This document shows positions 18,915-42,200 of a DNA stretch of 64,000 nt, one piece after another. This DNA is from Escherichia coli (lineage in GTDB: Bacteria > Pseudomonadota > Gammaproteobacteria > Enterobacterales > Enterobacteriaceae). The notes under the pieces were generated by a model, which did no database searches, was not told where the DNA came from, and saw only the letters and a program-made list of their open reading frames with translations. Position 1 is the stretch's first letter; each line of letters begins with the position of its first letter. The translations under genes were made by a program, and so were the position numbers. Where the stretch lies: assembly GCF_002854065.1 (NCBI RefSeq), contig NZ_CP024147.1. One strand, given 5' to 3'.

Positions 18915-19550
18915 ATGGCGGAGAATCAATCCACCGTAGAAAATGCAAAAGAGAAACTGGATCGGTGGTTGAAAGATGGCATCACCACGCCGGGTGGAAA
19001 ACTCCCTTCAGAAAGAGAGCTGGGAGAACTGCTGGGCATTAAACGTATGACGCTGCGCCAGGCGTTGTTGAACCTCGAGGCAGAATCCAAAATCTTCCGT
19101 AAGGATCGTAAGGGGTGGTTCGTGACCCAGCCGCGATTTAATTACAGTCCGGAGCTGTCGGCGAGCTTTCAGCGGGCCGCAATTGAGCAAGGGCGAGAGC
19201 CTTCCTGGGGGTTTACCGAGAAAAACCGTACCAGCGATATTCCCGAGACGCTCGCGCCACTGATTGCAGTGACGCCATCAACTGAACTCTATCGCATCAC
19301 CGGCTGGGGGGCGCTGGAAGGACATAAAGTTTTCTATCACGAAACATATATTAATCCTGAAGTTGCTCCGGGCTTTATTGAACAACTTGAAAACCACTCA
19401 TTTTCTGCAGTCTGGGAAAAGTGCTACCAAAAAGAGACGGTAGTAAAAAAATTGATTTTCAAACCCGTCAGAATGCCGGGCGATATCAGCAAGTATCTTG
19501 GCGGTTCTGCGGGTATGCCAGCGATATTAATTGAAAAGCATCGCGCCGAC
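18915..19550 (+). pseudogene. yihL: yihL (GntR/UTRA-type regulator), 3'-truncated by IS1
   Basis: ORF reads through into IS1 left end (last 8 codons GDAANLLI are IS1-encoded). Confidence 0.8.
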
Positions 19551-19605
19551 GGTGATGCTGCCAACTTACTGATTTAGTGTATGATGGTGTCTTTGAGGTG
19601 CTCCA

Positions 19606-19881
19606 GTGGCTTCTGTTTCTATCAGCTGTCCCTCCTGTTCAGCTACTGACGGGGTGGTGCGTAACGGCAAAAGCACTGCCGGACATCAGCGCTATCTCTG
19701 CTCTCACTGCCGTAAAACATGGCAACTGCAGTTCACTTACACCGCTTCTCAACCCGGTACGCACCAGAAAATCATTGATATGGCCATGAATGGCGTTGGA
19801 TGCCGGGCAACCGCCCGCATTATGGGCGTTGGCCTCAACACGATTTTCCGCCATTTAAAAAACTCAGGCCGCAGTCGGTAA
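19606..19881 (+). CDS. insA: IS1 InsA
   Basis: Identical 91-aa product. Confidence 0.95.
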
Positions 19882-20303
19882 CCTCGCGCATACAGCCGGG
19901 CAGTGACGTCATCGTCTGCGCGGAAATGGACGAACAGTGGGGATACGTCGGGGCTAAATCGCGCCAGCGCTGGCTGTTTTACGCGTATGACAGGCTCCGG
20001 AAGACGGTTGTTGCGCACGTATTCGGTGAACGCACTATGGCGACGCTGGGGCGTCTTATGAGCCTGCTGTCACCCTTTGACGTGGTGATATGGATGACGG
20101 ATGGCTGGCCGCTGTATGAATCCCGCCTGAAGGGAAAGCTGCACGTAATCAGCAAGCGATATACGCAGCGAATTGAGCGGCATAACCTGAATCTGAGGCA
20201 GCACCTGGCACGGCTGGGACGGAAGTCGCTGTCGTTCTCAAAATCGGTGGAGCTGCATGACAAAGTCATCGGGCATTATCTGAACATAAAACACTATCAA
20301 TAA
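19800..20303 (+). CDS. insB: IS1 InsB
   Basis: Identical 167-aa product. Confidence 0.93.
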
Positions 20304-20318
20304 GTTGGAGTCATTACC

Positions 20319-21306
20319 GCCGGGGTATTGGGGCATCCTCTTTGTCTGGGCGCTATTTGGCGTTACTTGCGACATGATGAACTGGCCGGTCTTACTCAAG
20401 TCGGTAAGTCGATTGGGCAATAGCGAACAACAAGGTCGGTTGTTTGGCTTCTTCGAAACAGGGCGTGGCATTGTCGATACCGTGGTGGCATTTTCTGCGT
20501 TGGCAGTATTTACCTGGTTTGGCAGTGGCTTATTGGGTTTTAAAGCAGGCATCTGGTTCTATTCCCTTATTGTGATTGCCGTAGGCATTATTATTTTCTT
20601 TGTCCTGAATGACAAAGAAGAGGCACCGTCCGTTGAGGTGAAAAAAGAAGACGGAGCATCGCAAAACACCAGTATGACCTCGGTGCTGAAAGACAAAACT
20701 ATCTGGCTTATCGCTTTCAACGTCTTCTTCGTTTACGCGGTTTACTGTGGCCTGACATTCTTCATTCCATTCCTGAAAAACATCTATCTATTGCCCGTTG
20801 CGCTGGTGGGGGCTTACGGCATCATTAACCAATACTGTCTGAAAATGATTGGTGGACCGATTGGTGGCATGATTTCAGATAAGATCCTGAAATCGCCGAG
20901 TAAATATCTATGCTACACCTTTATCATCAGTACCGCTGCGCTCGTACTGTTGATTATGCTGCCGCACGAAAGTATGCCGGTCTATTTAGGGATGGCATGT
21001 ACGCTGGGCTTTGGCGCGATAGTCTTTACACAGCGAGCCGTATTTTTTGCACCTATCGGCGAAGCAAAAATTGCTGAAAATAAAACAGGCGCGGTGATGG
21101 CGTTGGGTAGCTTTATTGGTTACGCCCCGGCGATGTTCTGCTTTAGTCTGTATGGCTACATTCTGGATTTAAATCCGGGGATTATTGGCTACAAAATCGT
21201 GTTTGGCATTATGGCCTGCTTCGCATTCTGTGGTGCGGTGGTTTCCGTAATGCTGGTTAAGCGTATTAGCCAACGTAAGAAAGAGATGCTGGCGGCTGAA
21301 GCTTAA
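20319..21306 (+). pseudogene. yihN: MFS transporter YihN, 5'-truncated (C-terminal ~330 codons only)
   Basis: Multi-TM ORF begins directly at IS1 right end with no native start; matches C-terminal part of yihN. Confidence 0.75.
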
Positions 21307-21427
21307 TTAATGGCCGGATGTGCTTAATCCGGCCAAAAAAAATCCGCTGAATCCCCAGCGGATTTTTCGAAGTTTCAATTTCAGGATACTTCTTGCTCGG
21401 CAACTACCAGTTCAACATTCTCTTCAC

Positions 21428-21790
21428 TTAACAACTGGCAGAAAGAATTGGGAGGCGGGGCATCAGTAAAAAAAGCCCTGACATTCCGTGCATTGCCAAC
21501 GCTACCGCGCCGTGAAAAACATCGCCTGCTCCAGTCGTATCAACCACATTGACAGAAAATGCATCCTGTTGACACAAATGATCATCTTTAATCCACAATG
21601 AATCTTCAGAACCCAGCGTGACATACACTTTACCCGCAGTTTGTGTCGTTGCCTGGTACAAACCTTCTTCAGGTGACTGCAGGCCAGTCATGCGTTTCCG
21701 CCCTGGCGTTGAGAACACGGCGTGATCAGTAAGCGCGACAAGTGGATAAATATCCTGCGGTGTCATATCGTCGCTGGTTATCGAAACTCG
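21428..21790 (-). pseudogene. Remnant of pfkB-family sugar kinase (yihV-like sulfofructose kinase)
   Basis: Reverse-strand ORF contains VDTTGAGDVFHGA pfkB signature but lacks N-terminal half and has a non-native C-terminus. Confidence 0.55.
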
Positions 21791-21955
21791 TTGGCAATTT
21801 ACACCTGAATCTTAACCATTCATCTATTGCGAAAAAGCCAGTGAAATTACTCTGCTTTTTCGCAATCAGCATCACAAGATTACCCTTATTGCCACATAGC
21901 CAAACCCATCCTTTCCCGCTACAGTTAATTTCTTGTGGCGCGAAAGGAGGCAAAA

Positions 21956-22555
21956 ATGCTCTATATCTTTGATTTAGGTAATGTGATTGTCGATATCGAC
22001 TTTAACCGTGTGCTGGGAGCCTGGAGCGATTTAACGCGTATTCCGCTGGCTACGCTTAAGAAGAGTTTTCATATGGGGGAGGCGTTTCATCAGCATGAGC
22101 GCGGGGAAATTAGCGACGAAGCGTTCGCAGAGGCGCTGTGTCATGAGATGGCTCTACCGCTAAGCTACGAGCAGTTCTCTCACGGCTGGCAGGCGGTGTT
22201 TGTTGCGCTGCGCCCGGAAGTGATCGCCATCATGCATAAACTGCGTGAGCAGGGGCATCGCGTGGTGGTGCTTTCCAATACCAACCGCCTGCATACCACC
22301 TTCTGGCCGGAAGAATACCCGGAAATTCGTGATGCTGCTGACCATATCTATCTGTCGCAAGATCTGGGGATGCGCAAACCTGAAGCACGAATTTACCAGC
22401 ATGTTTTGCAGGCAGAAGGTTTTTCACCCAGCGATACGGTCTTTTTCGACGATAACGCCGATAATATAGAAGGAGCTAATCATCTAGGCATTACCAGTAT
22501 TCTGGTGAAAGATAAAACCACCATCCCGGACTATTTCGCGAAGGTGTTATGCTAA
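21956..22555 (+). CDS. yihX: HAD-family sugar phosphatase YihX
   Basis: N-terminus [15 protein letters not shown] with HAD motif I. Confidence 0.93.
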
Positions 22556-36556: not shown

Positions 36557-36993
36557 CACCCCTTGTGAAGTAACTCCATAAATGCCTCATATCCTGTTAA
36601 CCCGGCAATAACTTCTGCCGGATGCTGACACAATACGCTTGCCAGATAGCTGAATATTTTTAGCTCATGACGCGCATCGGCGGCGGCGCAGGCGATCAAA
36701 ACATGGTTAATGACTTCGTTATTCACCTCAACTGATTGGGCGAGGGTAATAAAAAATCCACGAAAACGTCGCTCCTGTTCGCTCCAGCAATGTGGGATGG
36801 CGAGGCGATTAACAATCAGGTTTTCACCTTCGCCTTCGCGGGCGATGATCCGTTGCGCTTCATCGGCGGTAATATGGTGTTGTGCGACTAATTGCGCACA
36901 AATTTGCCGGGTAATATGTTGCCAGCTTTCACCGCGTACATTCGAATAATGAAAACTTCCGGGGGCAGAGAAAAAACGCTCCGGTTGCTGGCG
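36557..36993 (-). pseudogene. frvR: frvR C-terminal fragment (PTS EIIA-like domain), 5' part removed by IS1
   Basis: Reverse-strand translation ...LIACAAADARHELKIFSYLASVLCQHPAEVIAGLTGYEAFMELLHKG*; interrupted by IS1 at 36994. Confidence 0.7.
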
Positions 36994-37008
36994 GGTAATG
37001 ACTCCAAC

Positions 37009-37512
37009 TTATTGATAGTGTTTTATGTTCAGATAATGCCCGATGACTTTGTCATGCAGCTCCACCGATTTTGAGAACGACAGCGACTTCCGTCCCAGCC
37101 GTGCCAGGTGCTGCCTCAGATTCAGGTTATGCCGCTCAATTCGCTGCGTATATCGCTTGCTGATTACGTGCAGCTTTCCCTTCAGGCGGGATTCATACAG
37201 CGGCCAGCCATCCGTCATCCATATCACCACGTCAAAGGGTGACAGCAGGCTCATAAGACGCCCCAGCGTCGCCATAGTGCGTTCACCGAATACGTGCGCA
37301 ACAACCGTCTTCCGGAGCCTGTCATACGCGTAAAACAGCCAGCGCTGGCGCGATTTAGCCCCGACGTATCCCCACTGTTCGTCCATTTCCGCGCAGACGA
37401 TGACGTCACTGCCCGGCTGTATGCGCGAGGTTACCGACTGCGGCCTGAGTTTTTTAAATGGCGGAAAATCGTGTTGAGGCCAACGCCCATAATGCGGGCG
37501 GTTGCCCGGCAT
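37009..37512 (-). CDS. insB: IS1 InsB
   Basis: Identical 167-aa product on minus strand. Confidence 0.93.
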
Positions 37513-37706
37513 CCAACGCCATTCATGGCCATATCAATGATTTTCTGGTGCGTACCGGGTTGAGAAGCGGTGTAAGTGAACTGCAGTTGCCATGTTTTAC
37601 GGCAGTGAGAGCAGAGATAGCGCTGATGTCCGGCAGTGCTTTTGCCGTTACGCACCACCCCGTCAGTAGCTGAACAGGAGGGACAGCTGATAGAAACAGA
37701 AGCCAC
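37431..37706 (-). CDS. insA: IS1 InsA
   Basis: Identical 91-aa product on minus strand. Confidence 0.95.
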
Positions 37707-37761
37707 TGGAGCACCTCAAAAACACCATCATACACTAAATCAGTAAGTTGGCAGCATCACC

Positions 37762-39063
37762 ATACGTCCCGAGGTAAATATTAAAGTTCTCCATATCCAT
37801 CACATTAGCGAACTGATAAGACGCATGAATGGTGTGAATGGTGTACGTCCCTTCATCATCAATCCAGCAGTCGTTATCACAAACTACACCGCTGAATTCA
37901 TCAATCTTATTGTGCGCGTAGATATAACCGAGCTCGAAACGTTTCCACAGCGCGTTAATCCCGGCAGTGAAATCTTTCTCATTATTAGCATCTAAATAGG
38001 CGGTATTAAGATTAACCACAATGCCATTGTCCGGATCCGTTTTCAGGCCGTTCCAGGTCATGCTCATACCATAGCCGGTACGATCGGACTGATCGACAAA
38101 ATTACCCTTGCTATCGGTATAACCATAAGCATTATTTACCACGTTCGCTTCCATCGCTGCGGAAACGGTGAATTCTTCCGTCGGCGACCAGGCAATTACT
38201 GGGCGCAGATAAGCAACATTTTTCTGCTGCTCCATATCGCGTCCATGATAATTACCGTCATTATATAAAGATGTTCCGTCTTCAAGTAACGTATTTAATT
38301 CAAAATACCAGTTATCGAGTTGTTTGCTGACGAGGAAATTACCGCCAGCGTTAGAGCGCCCGCGGCCCTCTTTCATCATATAGATATAACCGCTGCCATC
38401 GTCATAAAGATCGTTCGCAGTATTACCGGAATGTTCAACAAAGGTATCCTGATTCAGCGGGAACATATCGTAGGCTTCAAAACGGCCTACTTTGACCTTC
38501 CAGTCGTTTTCTTTGCCAAAGAAGAATACCGCATCATCGATATTTACTGAACCGTGCATATCACCCAGCGGTTGTGCGGAGAACCCGGCGAAATAACCGT
38601 TGTCCATCTTTCGCATACCGTCAAAACCTAACAGAATACGACCATTGAGATTCCACTGTTCATTAGTGGGATCGCTATTCACATCAGCGTTGGTCATTGC
38701 CAGCAGGCCATGATTACTTTCCGCATCCATATTAAATTCTACGTCGCCGTAGATTTTTAAATCGCCATAACCTGAAAGCAAAAGATTAGGTGAGGTGGCA
38801 TTTTTCTTTGCAGATTCCGTCGTTGCCTGTCCATTTACCGGCGTATTGCCCTGAGCGGCCTTAATTTCGCGGATCTCAGCGGCTTGTTGTGTCTGCAGCT
38901 GTTTAACCTGGCTCTCTGCTTTTGCTGCCCGCATTTCTGCCGCTTCCAGGCGTTCTTCCAGCAATGCCATGCGTTGTTCCAGCGTTAAATGCTGTGTTTT
39001 TGCCATACCGGTACTACATGCCAATAATAAACCGATGGCTAAAGATAATGTCGATTTTTTCAT
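37762..39063 (-). pseudogene. LamB/ScrY-family carbohydrate porin with N-terminal coiled-coil extension, 3'-truncated by IS1
   Basis: Signal peptide MKKSTLSLAIGLLLA, coiled-coil LEQRMALLEERLEAAEMRAAKAESQVKQLQ, then aromatic-rich beta-barrel-like sequence; ORF runs into IS1 (terminal GDAANLLI is IS1-encoded). Confidence 0.6.
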
Positions 39064-39540
39064 TATTTACGTTCCCTGAAATAAAGGAGGCCCTACGCTT
39101 TCCAAAAGGAATACGTATATAGAGAAATATAAAGTGTGCACTTTCGAATTTTTAATCCAACTTCAGCAGGCCGATGGATAGTATCCCGCCGCATAATATG
39201 AGTAAATCCGCTGATTTCCTGGAACGTGAGGAATATAACAATAGTGCCGTTTTTAACTAAATATCGTAAAAAATATTAGATATGATTCACGCTGACTCAT
39301 AAGCCACAAATATAAATAATGTTTAGACAAATTATCTGAGACATTTAAACATTCACAAAATCATTAAAGAATGATTTTTTATTCACAAGATTTATTTTAC
39401 CTACTAATATGTGCCTTACGCCGCAAAATTTATCCTTCACTCTGCTTTATATTGTCACGACTTCACGACATATCCGCGCTCATCACAAACCCGCCCCGCT
39501 ATTACAATTAACGTAAATATTTTTTCATGGAGTCCGATTA

Positions 39541-39694
39541 ATGGCAGCTCTTACTGCAAGCTGTATTGACCTGAATATTCAGGGCAATGGCACTTATTCC
39601 ATTCTGAAACAGTTAGCGACAATGGCGTTACAAAACGGTTTTATCACCGACTCACACCAGTTCCTGCAAACCCTGCTGCTGCGCGAAAAAATGC
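39541..39694 (+). pseudogene. frvA: frvA 5' fragment (PTS fructose-like EIIA), truncated by IS1 and on opposite strand from frvR fragment
   Basis: Translation MAALTASCIDLNIQGNGTYSILKQLATMALQNGFITDSHQFLQTLLLREKM then IS1. Confidence 0.75.
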
Positions 39695-39749
39695 GGTGAT
39701 GCTGCCAACTTACTGATTTAGTGTATGATGGTGTTTTTGAGGTGCTCCA

Positions 39750-40025
39750 GTGGCTTCTGTTTCTATCAGCTGTCCCTCCTGTTCAGCTACTGACGGGGTG
39801 GTGCGTAACGGCAAAAGCACTGCCGGACATCAGCGCTATCTCTGCTCTCACTGCCGTAAAACATGGCAACTGCAGTTCACTTACACCGCTTCTCAACCCG
39901 GTACGCACCAGAAAATCATTGATATGGCCATGAATGGCGTTGGATGCCGGGCAACCGCCCGCATTATGGGCGTTGGCCTCAACACGATTTTCCGCCATTT
40001 AAAAAACTCAGGCCGCAGTCGGTAA
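39750..40025 (+). CDS. insA: IS1 InsA
   Basis: Identical 91-aa product. Confidence 0.95.
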
Positions 40026-40447
40026 CCTCGCGCATACAGCCGGGCAGTGACGTCATCGTCTGCGCGGAAATGGACGAACAGTGGGGATACGTCGGGGCTA
40101 AATCGCGCCAGCGCTGGCTGTTTTACGCGTATGACAGGCTCCGGAAGACGGTTGTTGCGCACGTATTCGGTGAACGCACTATGGCGACGCTGGGGCGTCT
40201 TATGAGCCTGCTGTCACCCTTTGACGTGGTGATATGGATGACGGATGGCTGGCCGCTGTATGAATCCCGCCTGAAGGGAAAGCTGCACGTAATCAGCAAG
40301 CGATATACGCAGCGAATTGAGCGGCATAACCTGAATCTGAGGCAGCACCTGGCACGGCTGGGACGGAAGTCGCTGTCGTTCTCAAAATCGGTGGAGCTGC
40401 ATGACAAAGTCATCGGGCATTATCTGAACATAAAACACTATCAATAA
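39944..40447 (+). CDS. insB: IS1 InsB
   Basis: Identical 167-aa product. Confidence 0.93.
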
Positions 40448-40604
40448 GTTGGAGTCATTACCGGGACGTATTACTCCATTCTGGATAGCGACGGCGATAA
40501 AAAACACGGTGATGATACTGATGACCGTTACGGCGCACGCGTTCGCTTTAAATACTTCTTCTGATGAAGGCGCGGTGCTGGATATTTTCCGGCACCGCAA
40601 CTCA

Positions 40605-41753: not shown

Positions 41754-41789
41754 GTTCTGTGTTCCTGTAAATTCGGTGTTGTCGGATGC

Positions 41790-42195
41790 ACGACCCGTAG
41801 GCCGGATAAGGCGCTCGTGCCGCATCCGGCAATCAATGCCTGATGCGACGCTGTCGCGTCTTATCAGGCCTACAACTATTGCCGACCTGTAGGCCGGATA
41901 AGGCACTTGTGCCGCATCCGGCAATCAATGCCTGATGCGACGCTGTTGCGTCTTATCAGGCCTACAACTGTTGCCGACCTGTAGGCCGGATAAGGCACTT
42001 GTGCCGCATCCGGCAATCAATGCCTGATGCGACGCTGTCGCGTCTTATCAGGCCTACAACTATTGCCGACCTGTAGGCCGGATAAGGCACTTGTGCCGCA
42101 TCCGGCAATCAATGCCTGATGCGATGTCGCGTCTTATCAGGCCTACAACTGTTGCCGACCTGTAGGCCGGATAAGGCACTTGTGCCGCATCCGGC
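41790..42195. repeat. BIME/REP tandem array in rhaD-rhaA intergenic region
   Basis: About 4.5 tandem units containing gtaggccggataaggcacttgtgccgcatccggc and gcctgatgcgacgctgtcgcgtcttatcaggcc palindromes. Confidence 0.9.
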
Positions 42196-42200
42196 AGTGT

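Follow-up and report, generated by a model that had tools for sequence, protein, structure and literature searches.

The closest described systems are the two alternative yih cassettes that occupy the interval between yihN and yihX in Escherichia coli. Kaznadzey et al. (2025) described a long cassette and a 'short' yihTUVW cassette that lies at the same position in reversed orientation, with both forms scattered over the E. coli and Shigella tree; the short form was reported not to be induced by sulfoquinovose (PMC12608037). In K-12 the long (sulfo-EMP) cassette measures ~11.9 kb, the minus strand carrying ompL-yihOPQRSTU and the plus strand yihV-csqR. In that locus yihV is co-oriented with yihX, as had been assumed in a preliminary description of the region studied here. 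The short cassette stands in place of K-12 ompL-yihOPQRSTUVW at the same site and consists of eight genes over ~8.7 kb. Reading from yihN to yihX, genes for a YihW-like DeoR regulator and a YihV-like kinase are found on the minus strand, followed on the plus strand by those for a YihU-like reductase, a YihT-like aldolase, a zinc-dependent alcohol dehydrogenase (Zn-ADH), two MFS transporters and an aldose-1-epimerase-like protein. The reference used for this arrangement is a locus from NZ_CP095088 (L004) which, judging from the published account, carries the same cassette type as Nissle 1917; short-type hits are also obtained in E2348/69, ATCC 8739 and ATCC 11775. The kinase, DeoR regulator, reductase and aldolase of K-12 share 67–73% protein identity with the short-cassette proteins, but the K-12 cassette has the opposite orientation and its yihQ, yihS, ompL, yihO and yihP are without a short-cassette counterpart.

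The short cassette is not a mere truncation of the long one, as it adds (L004 10842–15680) the Zn-ADH, the two MFS transporters and the aldose-1-epimerase-like gene. For the dehydrogenase and the transporters the K-12 cassette offers no counterpart. The first MFS protein is closest to shikimate-transporter and metabolite/H+ symporter models, and the second gives a weak match to the aromatic-acid/H+ symporter family. The epimerase-like protein is 27% identical to YihR, and the YihU-like protein scores 582 bits with the NCBIfam sulfolactaldehyde-reductase equivalog, above its cut-off of 348. Judged by its sequence, the substrate of the short cassette may be another sulfonated or anionic sugar or polyol, which would enter by oxidation instead of YihS isomerisation. 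Taking yihQ as the marker for the long cassette and the Zn-ADH as that for the short, the long form is present in 3917 of 5426 complete E. coli genomes and the short form in 1328 (~24%).

Within the window (the whole 64,000-nucleotide stretch of E. coli DNA analysed here) the gene order is typA, a 3′-truncated yihL, an IS1 (19550–20319), a 5′-truncated yihN, a spacer and yihX. The surviving 3′ portion of yihN (20320–21306, plus strand) is an MFS transporter pseudogene without its N-terminus, the stop codon of which ends at 21306. The intact yihX (glucose-1-phosphatase; 21956–22555, plus strand) has its ATG at 21956, and the gap between the two (21307–21955) is exactly 649 bp, in agreement with the ~650 bp first estimated. 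A tblastn search with the yih cassette proteins gives no match for yihQ, yihS or yihT-like and yihU-like sequences in the window, and no yih cassette gene anywhere in its 64 kb other than the remnants within the spacer. This spacer is almost certainly the non-functional scar of two deletions in a short yih cassette, preserved in native orientation and derived from a divergent allele. The colinearity, the junctions and the distribution of the scar are direct observations.

Three blocks of the window are colinear with L004 by blastn, in the same order and on the same strand. Positions 21100–21499 correspond to L004 6805–7240 and include the end of yihN, a pair of hairpins and the 3′ end of the DeoR gene. 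Positions 21494–21773 correspond to L004 8082–8367, the interior of the kinase gene, and 21772–22100 to L004 15637–15965, which takes in the final 44 nt of the epimerase-like gene, a spacer and yihX. With E-values down to 1e-118 and below, the match is far beyond chance. The yihW-like, yihV-like and epimerase-like pieces thus have the site, strand and order that they have in the short cassette, with 92–99% nucleotide identity over the kept segments, but 8.1 kb is missing and no gene is intact. Homology to K-12 ends at ~21342–21346 and resumes only at 21889; therefore the whole interior is short-cassette sequence, and the scar shows no DNA-level colinearity with the K-12 long cassette.

The two junctions are resolved to the base. 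At the first (21494–21499) one copy of TGCCAA is kept from a 6-bp microhomology, TGCCAA being present at both L004 7235–7240 and L004 8082–8087. This deletion removed 847 bp, comprising the remainder of the DeoR gene, the intergenic spacer and the 3′ end of the kinase gene. At the second (21772–21773) the microhomology is the 2-bp CG, of which one copy is kept (L004 8366–8367 and 15637–15638). Here 7271 bp were removed, comprising the 5′ half of the kinase gene, the yihU-like gene, the yihT-like aldolase gene, the Zn-ADH gene, both MFS transporter genes and most of the aldose-1-epimerase-like gene. A megablast search of the 5426 complete E. coli genomes finds none with only one of the two deletions. 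One complex event and two separate deletions both fit the junctions, and the order and number of events are a matter of reconstruction.

Immediately 3′ of yihN are two stable hairpins (21311–21367) with a minimum free energy of −33.8 kcal/mol on folding (z = −6.3). The first (21311–21335) is GGCCGGAT...ATCCGGCC, and the second (21338–21367), whose arms are an A-run and a T-run, resembles a terminator acting in both directions between yihN and the convergent yihW-like gene. A simple terminator scan makes no call at 21311–21367, though folding confirms an obvious hairpin there. A REP-like stretch of ~31–36 bp found in the intact short cassette is missing from this part of the window. The hairpins are followed by the 3′ remnant of the yihW-like DeoR/GlpR regulator gene (21381–21499, minus strand; a PGAP pseudogene), which is colinear with L004 7122–7240 and retains the last 40 codons and the stop; its translation differs at one residue from the C-terminus of the intact protein. 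yihW had been described as absent, which is correct for most of the gene but not for this end. Beyond the kinase piece, the last 44 nt of the aldose-1-epimerase-like gene including its TAA stop (21772–21815, plus strand) align by blastn with L004 15637–15680. They are followed by a short-cassette-specific spacer that is absent from K-12 (21816–21888) and by the 67 bp 5′ of yihX (21889–21955, plus strand), which are common to all cassette states, are present in 5421 of 5426 E. coli genomes and are intact here. The locus has the site and orientation of the short cassette and contains no intact yihT, yihU, yihV or yihW homologue; on its alignment it is a derivative of that cassette and not a functional member.

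The internal piece of the short-cassette yihV-like pfkB kinase (21494–21773, minus strand) contains codons ~161–256 of 298, with a 6-bp in-frame loss at codons 248–250. A 112-codon ORF on the minus strand (21428–21766) has its start at Met163, an internal residue of the kinase; after the kinase piece it reads out of frame across the DeoR remnant and ends at a fortuitous stop. This ORF carries DTTGAGDVFHGA, in which the pfkB signature DTxGAGD and its catalytic Asp are found as DTTGAGD. The ORF matches only pfkB/ribokinase-type NCBIfam models, all at 43 bits or less and far under the cut-offs (at least 216 bits), and PF00294 is precomputed for an identical ORF cluster (P0001). As the match covers profile positions ~198–261 of ~300, the ORF represents an internal kinase fragment. 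The full-length, two-lobed pfkB fold of ~300 residues would require the N-terminal sugar-binding half with its GG motif and the C-terminal ATP-binding helices, and both are missing; the piece is evidently a gene fragment and not a kinase. An internal pfkB piece on the strand opposite to yihX had been correctly recognized, but with a length of ~120 codons, where the kinase homology covers only ~95. The C-terminus had also been called non-native, and the last ~19 residues are indeed not kinase sequence, a feature explained by the out-of-frame reading into the DeoR gene remnant past the junction.

Megablast of the 649 bp against the 5426 complete E. coli genomes gives three classes of result. The whole spacer is found at 98.2–100% identity, with the same junctions, in 38 genomes that include O145:H28. 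In ~1327 genomes the kinase piece matches at ~94% within an intact 'sugar kinase' gene, and in the others the match is limited to the last 67 bp 5′ of yihX. The long (3917), short (1328) and scar (38) states together account for 5283 of the 5426 genomes, which leaves ~143 in yet other states. The PGAP/RefSeq annotation treats the scar as adjoining partial pseudogenes, a DeoR family transcriptional regulator and a PfkB family carbohydrate kinase, and pseudogene calls are made on the same sequence in O145:H28 RM12581, CUWW06, 100416 and others. The scar is ordinary reductive gene decay, already annotated as pseudogene fragments.

Comparison with O145:H28 gives a relative age for the scar. O145:H28 has both junctions and the 6-bp in-frame kinase loss but differs from the window by 6 bp in the hairpin region and by intact yihL, yihM and yihN. 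In the window the IS1 (19550–20319, plus strand) stands in place of the 3′ end of yihL, all of yihM and the 5′ end of yihN, a replacement of 1442 bp relative to O145:H28 (L007 2570–4013) that is common to 100416 and CUWW06. Since O145:H28 has the scar and yet retains yihL, yihM and yihN, the scar is older than the IS1 event. That insertion reads as a later, separate decay event through which the yihLMN sugar locus is also dead. The two scar alleles differ by five substitutions and a 6-bp indel, a level similar to that of the flanks (~1–1.4%), and the scar predates the ~1% divergence of the O145:H28 and window copies of the locus.

The kinase segment of the scar is a divergent allele with decay mutations, its best intact match being 94% identical. 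In none of the 5426 E. coli genomes does the kinase of an intact cassette exceed 94% identity to the remnant, and the parental allele is thus reconstructed rather than observed. A homologous-protein search with the 92-aa kinase part returns nothing but short fragments, namely partial kinases and the remnant ORF. When one genome per species is scanned with a wobble-tolerant DNA pattern, a single locus matches, in Escherichia sp. MOD1-EC7003, the allele of which is rejected as the parent at 93% identity. An alternative is that the remnant is a recent truncation of the short cassette common today, with the ~6% divergence due purely to decay after inactivation. This was suggested when the differences were polarized with K-12 YihV alone, as most of them then appear to be derived in the remnant. 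Between the kinase piece and the uniform E. coli short allele there are 17 differences, and a comparison of three alleles (remnant, E. coli short allele and MOD1-EC7003) by branch assignment and a codon table revises the picture to a divergent parent with subsequent decay. Ten of the 17 differences lie on the E. coli short-allele branch, seven of these being synonymous, while only six are specific to the remnant, five of them non-synonymous (S169Y, A175T, L185R, G217D and E222K). The common short cassette is also very uniform, the Zn-ADH being at least 99% identical in 1306 of the 1328 genomes that carry it. Therefore the parent was a distinct, older short-cassette allele and the fragment has since been unconstrained, and a purely post-inactivation origin of the divergence is improbable.

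A two-deletion origin from a divergent allele would account for the locus as follows. The ancestor would have carried a divergent allele of the short cassette, from which two microhomology-bounded deletions (847 bp at TGCCAA and 7271 bp at CG) would have removed 8.1 kb. What was left, in native order and orientation, would be the last 40 codons of the regulator, ~95 internal codons of the kinase and the 44 nt at the 3′ end of the epimerase-like gene. The fragment would then have drifted without selection, and a later IS1 event in the lineage of the window would have destroyed yihL, yihM and yihN.

Retention of the 112-aa chimeric ORF or of the scar DNA for a function, be it a small protein, a regulatory RNA or a promoter or terminator context for yihX, is highly improbable. 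The ORF is open in both lineages examined, and the scar occurs in 38 genomes from at least two lineages with locus alleles ~1% apart. The start of the ORF varies between these lineages, however, the O145:H28 copy (P0001), of 117 aa, beginning elsewhere, and a frameshifted version of 92 aa is known from another strain (P0006). The 93 codons of kinase reading frame that are still open are expected by chance at this level of divergence. Of the pfkB fold, neither the sugar-binding N-terminal half nor the C-terminal part is left in the fragment. The ratio of five non-synonymous changes to one synonymous also argues against a conserved protein, with G217D and L185R affecting residues common to YihV and the E. 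coli short-cassette kinase. Strong hairpins do stand at the left end of the scar, but blastn shows them to be inherited unchanged from the intact cassette. An Rfam scan of 20900–22300 gives no family match, and a promoter consensus scan of the region gives no sigma-70-like site. Nothing in these results points to a function for the scar or its ORF, and we infer that it has none.

The weakest alternative, a ~12 kb deletion in a K-12-type ompL-yihOPQRSTUVW locus combined with a local inversion by which a yihV fragment was turned round, matches the size of the K-12 cassette and the fact that K-12 yihV lies on the yihX strand, so that against K-12 the fragment looks inverted, but it can scarcely be credited when the fragment is 57% identical in protein sequence to YihV and 88% to the short-cassette kinase, the DNA on either side of it (21343–21499 and 21772–21888) is short-cassette-specific and absent from K-12, and in order and strand the pieces agree exactly with the intact short cassette. 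Because order and strand are unchanged, no inversion is needed; the fragment is in the native orientation of the short cassette, which is reversed relative to K-12 (PMC12608037). The ~12 kb deletion with an inversion was the history proposed in the preliminary description. The loss of a cassette between yihN and yihX with a dead pfkB fragment left behind is upheld, whereas the K-12-type starting point is not: the blastn comparison with the K-12 locus that it suggested gives the flanks and otherwise only a 55-nt reverse match of 82% at the kinase motif, and a K-12 origin is rejected. The fragment comes in effect from a different pfkB paralogue, the yihV counterpart of the alternative cassette, and is not an orthologue of K-12 YihV. 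The actual loss is 847 + 7271 bp from a cassette of ~8.7 kb. K-12 is the wrong template here: the oppositely oriented cassette is present in ~24% of complete E. coli genomes, and the apparent inversion with a 12 kb deletion is in reality an 8.1 kb loss from a short cassette.

The two-deletion scar represents the loss of all cassette enzymes, and the strain is predicted to be without any yih-encoded sulfo-EMP enzymes. It is doubtful that the use of sulfoquinovose was thereby lost, because the short cassette is without yihQ and yihS and is reported to show no response to this sugar. The label 'sulfoquinovose catabolic locus' previously given to the region is accordingly uncertain, since the lost cassette also lacked ompL-yihOP and published data show it uninduced by sulfoquinovose; yihQ and yihS are missing both from the window and from the parental short cassette. 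The cassette that was lost had probably never been a sulfoquinovose pathway.

No description of the scar was found in the literature searched, and the main text of PMC12608037 contains none of the terms 'pseudogene', 'remnant', 'O145' or 'alcohol dehydrogenase'. A yihS frameshift has been reported in O55:H7 (PMC9413875); considered as an account of the scar, it is unrelated. With the scar, which 38 of 5426 genomes carry, O145:H28 STEC among them, the published long/short polymorphism gains a third, 'null' state, and the exact breakpoints could serve as a lineage marker. A more speculative and rather unlikely proposal is that the scar is the sole surviving trace of an extinct, divergent short-cassette lineage, and that it occurs in lineages with different alleles of this locus (O145:H28 STEC and one rich in IS1) because the loss allele was spread by homologous recombination under selection against the cassette and not by simple vertical inheritance. 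If so, the yihN–yihX site would be a three-state polymorphism (long, short and null) kept by niche-specific selection.

Other repeats and rearrangements are present in the window. Self-blast of the window shows a tandem-like repeat at 41787–42196, with copies offset by ~92 bp and ~96% identical. Between fabY and yiiE (~25250–27100; L001 9945–11759) there is an inserted transposase gene with a truncated hypothetical pseudogene; a comparable insertion is present in O145:H28 and absent from K-12. An IS1 at 1397–2165 lies between direct repeats of 559 bp (838–1396 and 2165–2723) that are identical at 558 of 559 positions, with an intact dsbA (712–1338) on its 5′ side and a second, partial copy on its 3′ side (ORF 2231–2665, the C-terminal 144 aa). 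The close relative 100416 has one dsbA and no IS1 at this site. IS1 target duplications are normally ~9 bp, and the unusual 559-bp duplication could be an IS-mediated duplication or an assembly artefact. Two inverted IS1 copies (36994–37761 and 39695–40462; region 36990–40463) bracket ~1.9 kb. Where 100416 has ~6.2 kb containing a porin pseudogene, an IS1, frvA, frvB, frvX and part of frvR, the window has ~3.5 kb, which makes the frv region the site of another rearrangement or deletion associated with IS1. The 64 kb contain four IS1 copies, a density that gives the genome the IS1-rich look of Shigella or EIEC.
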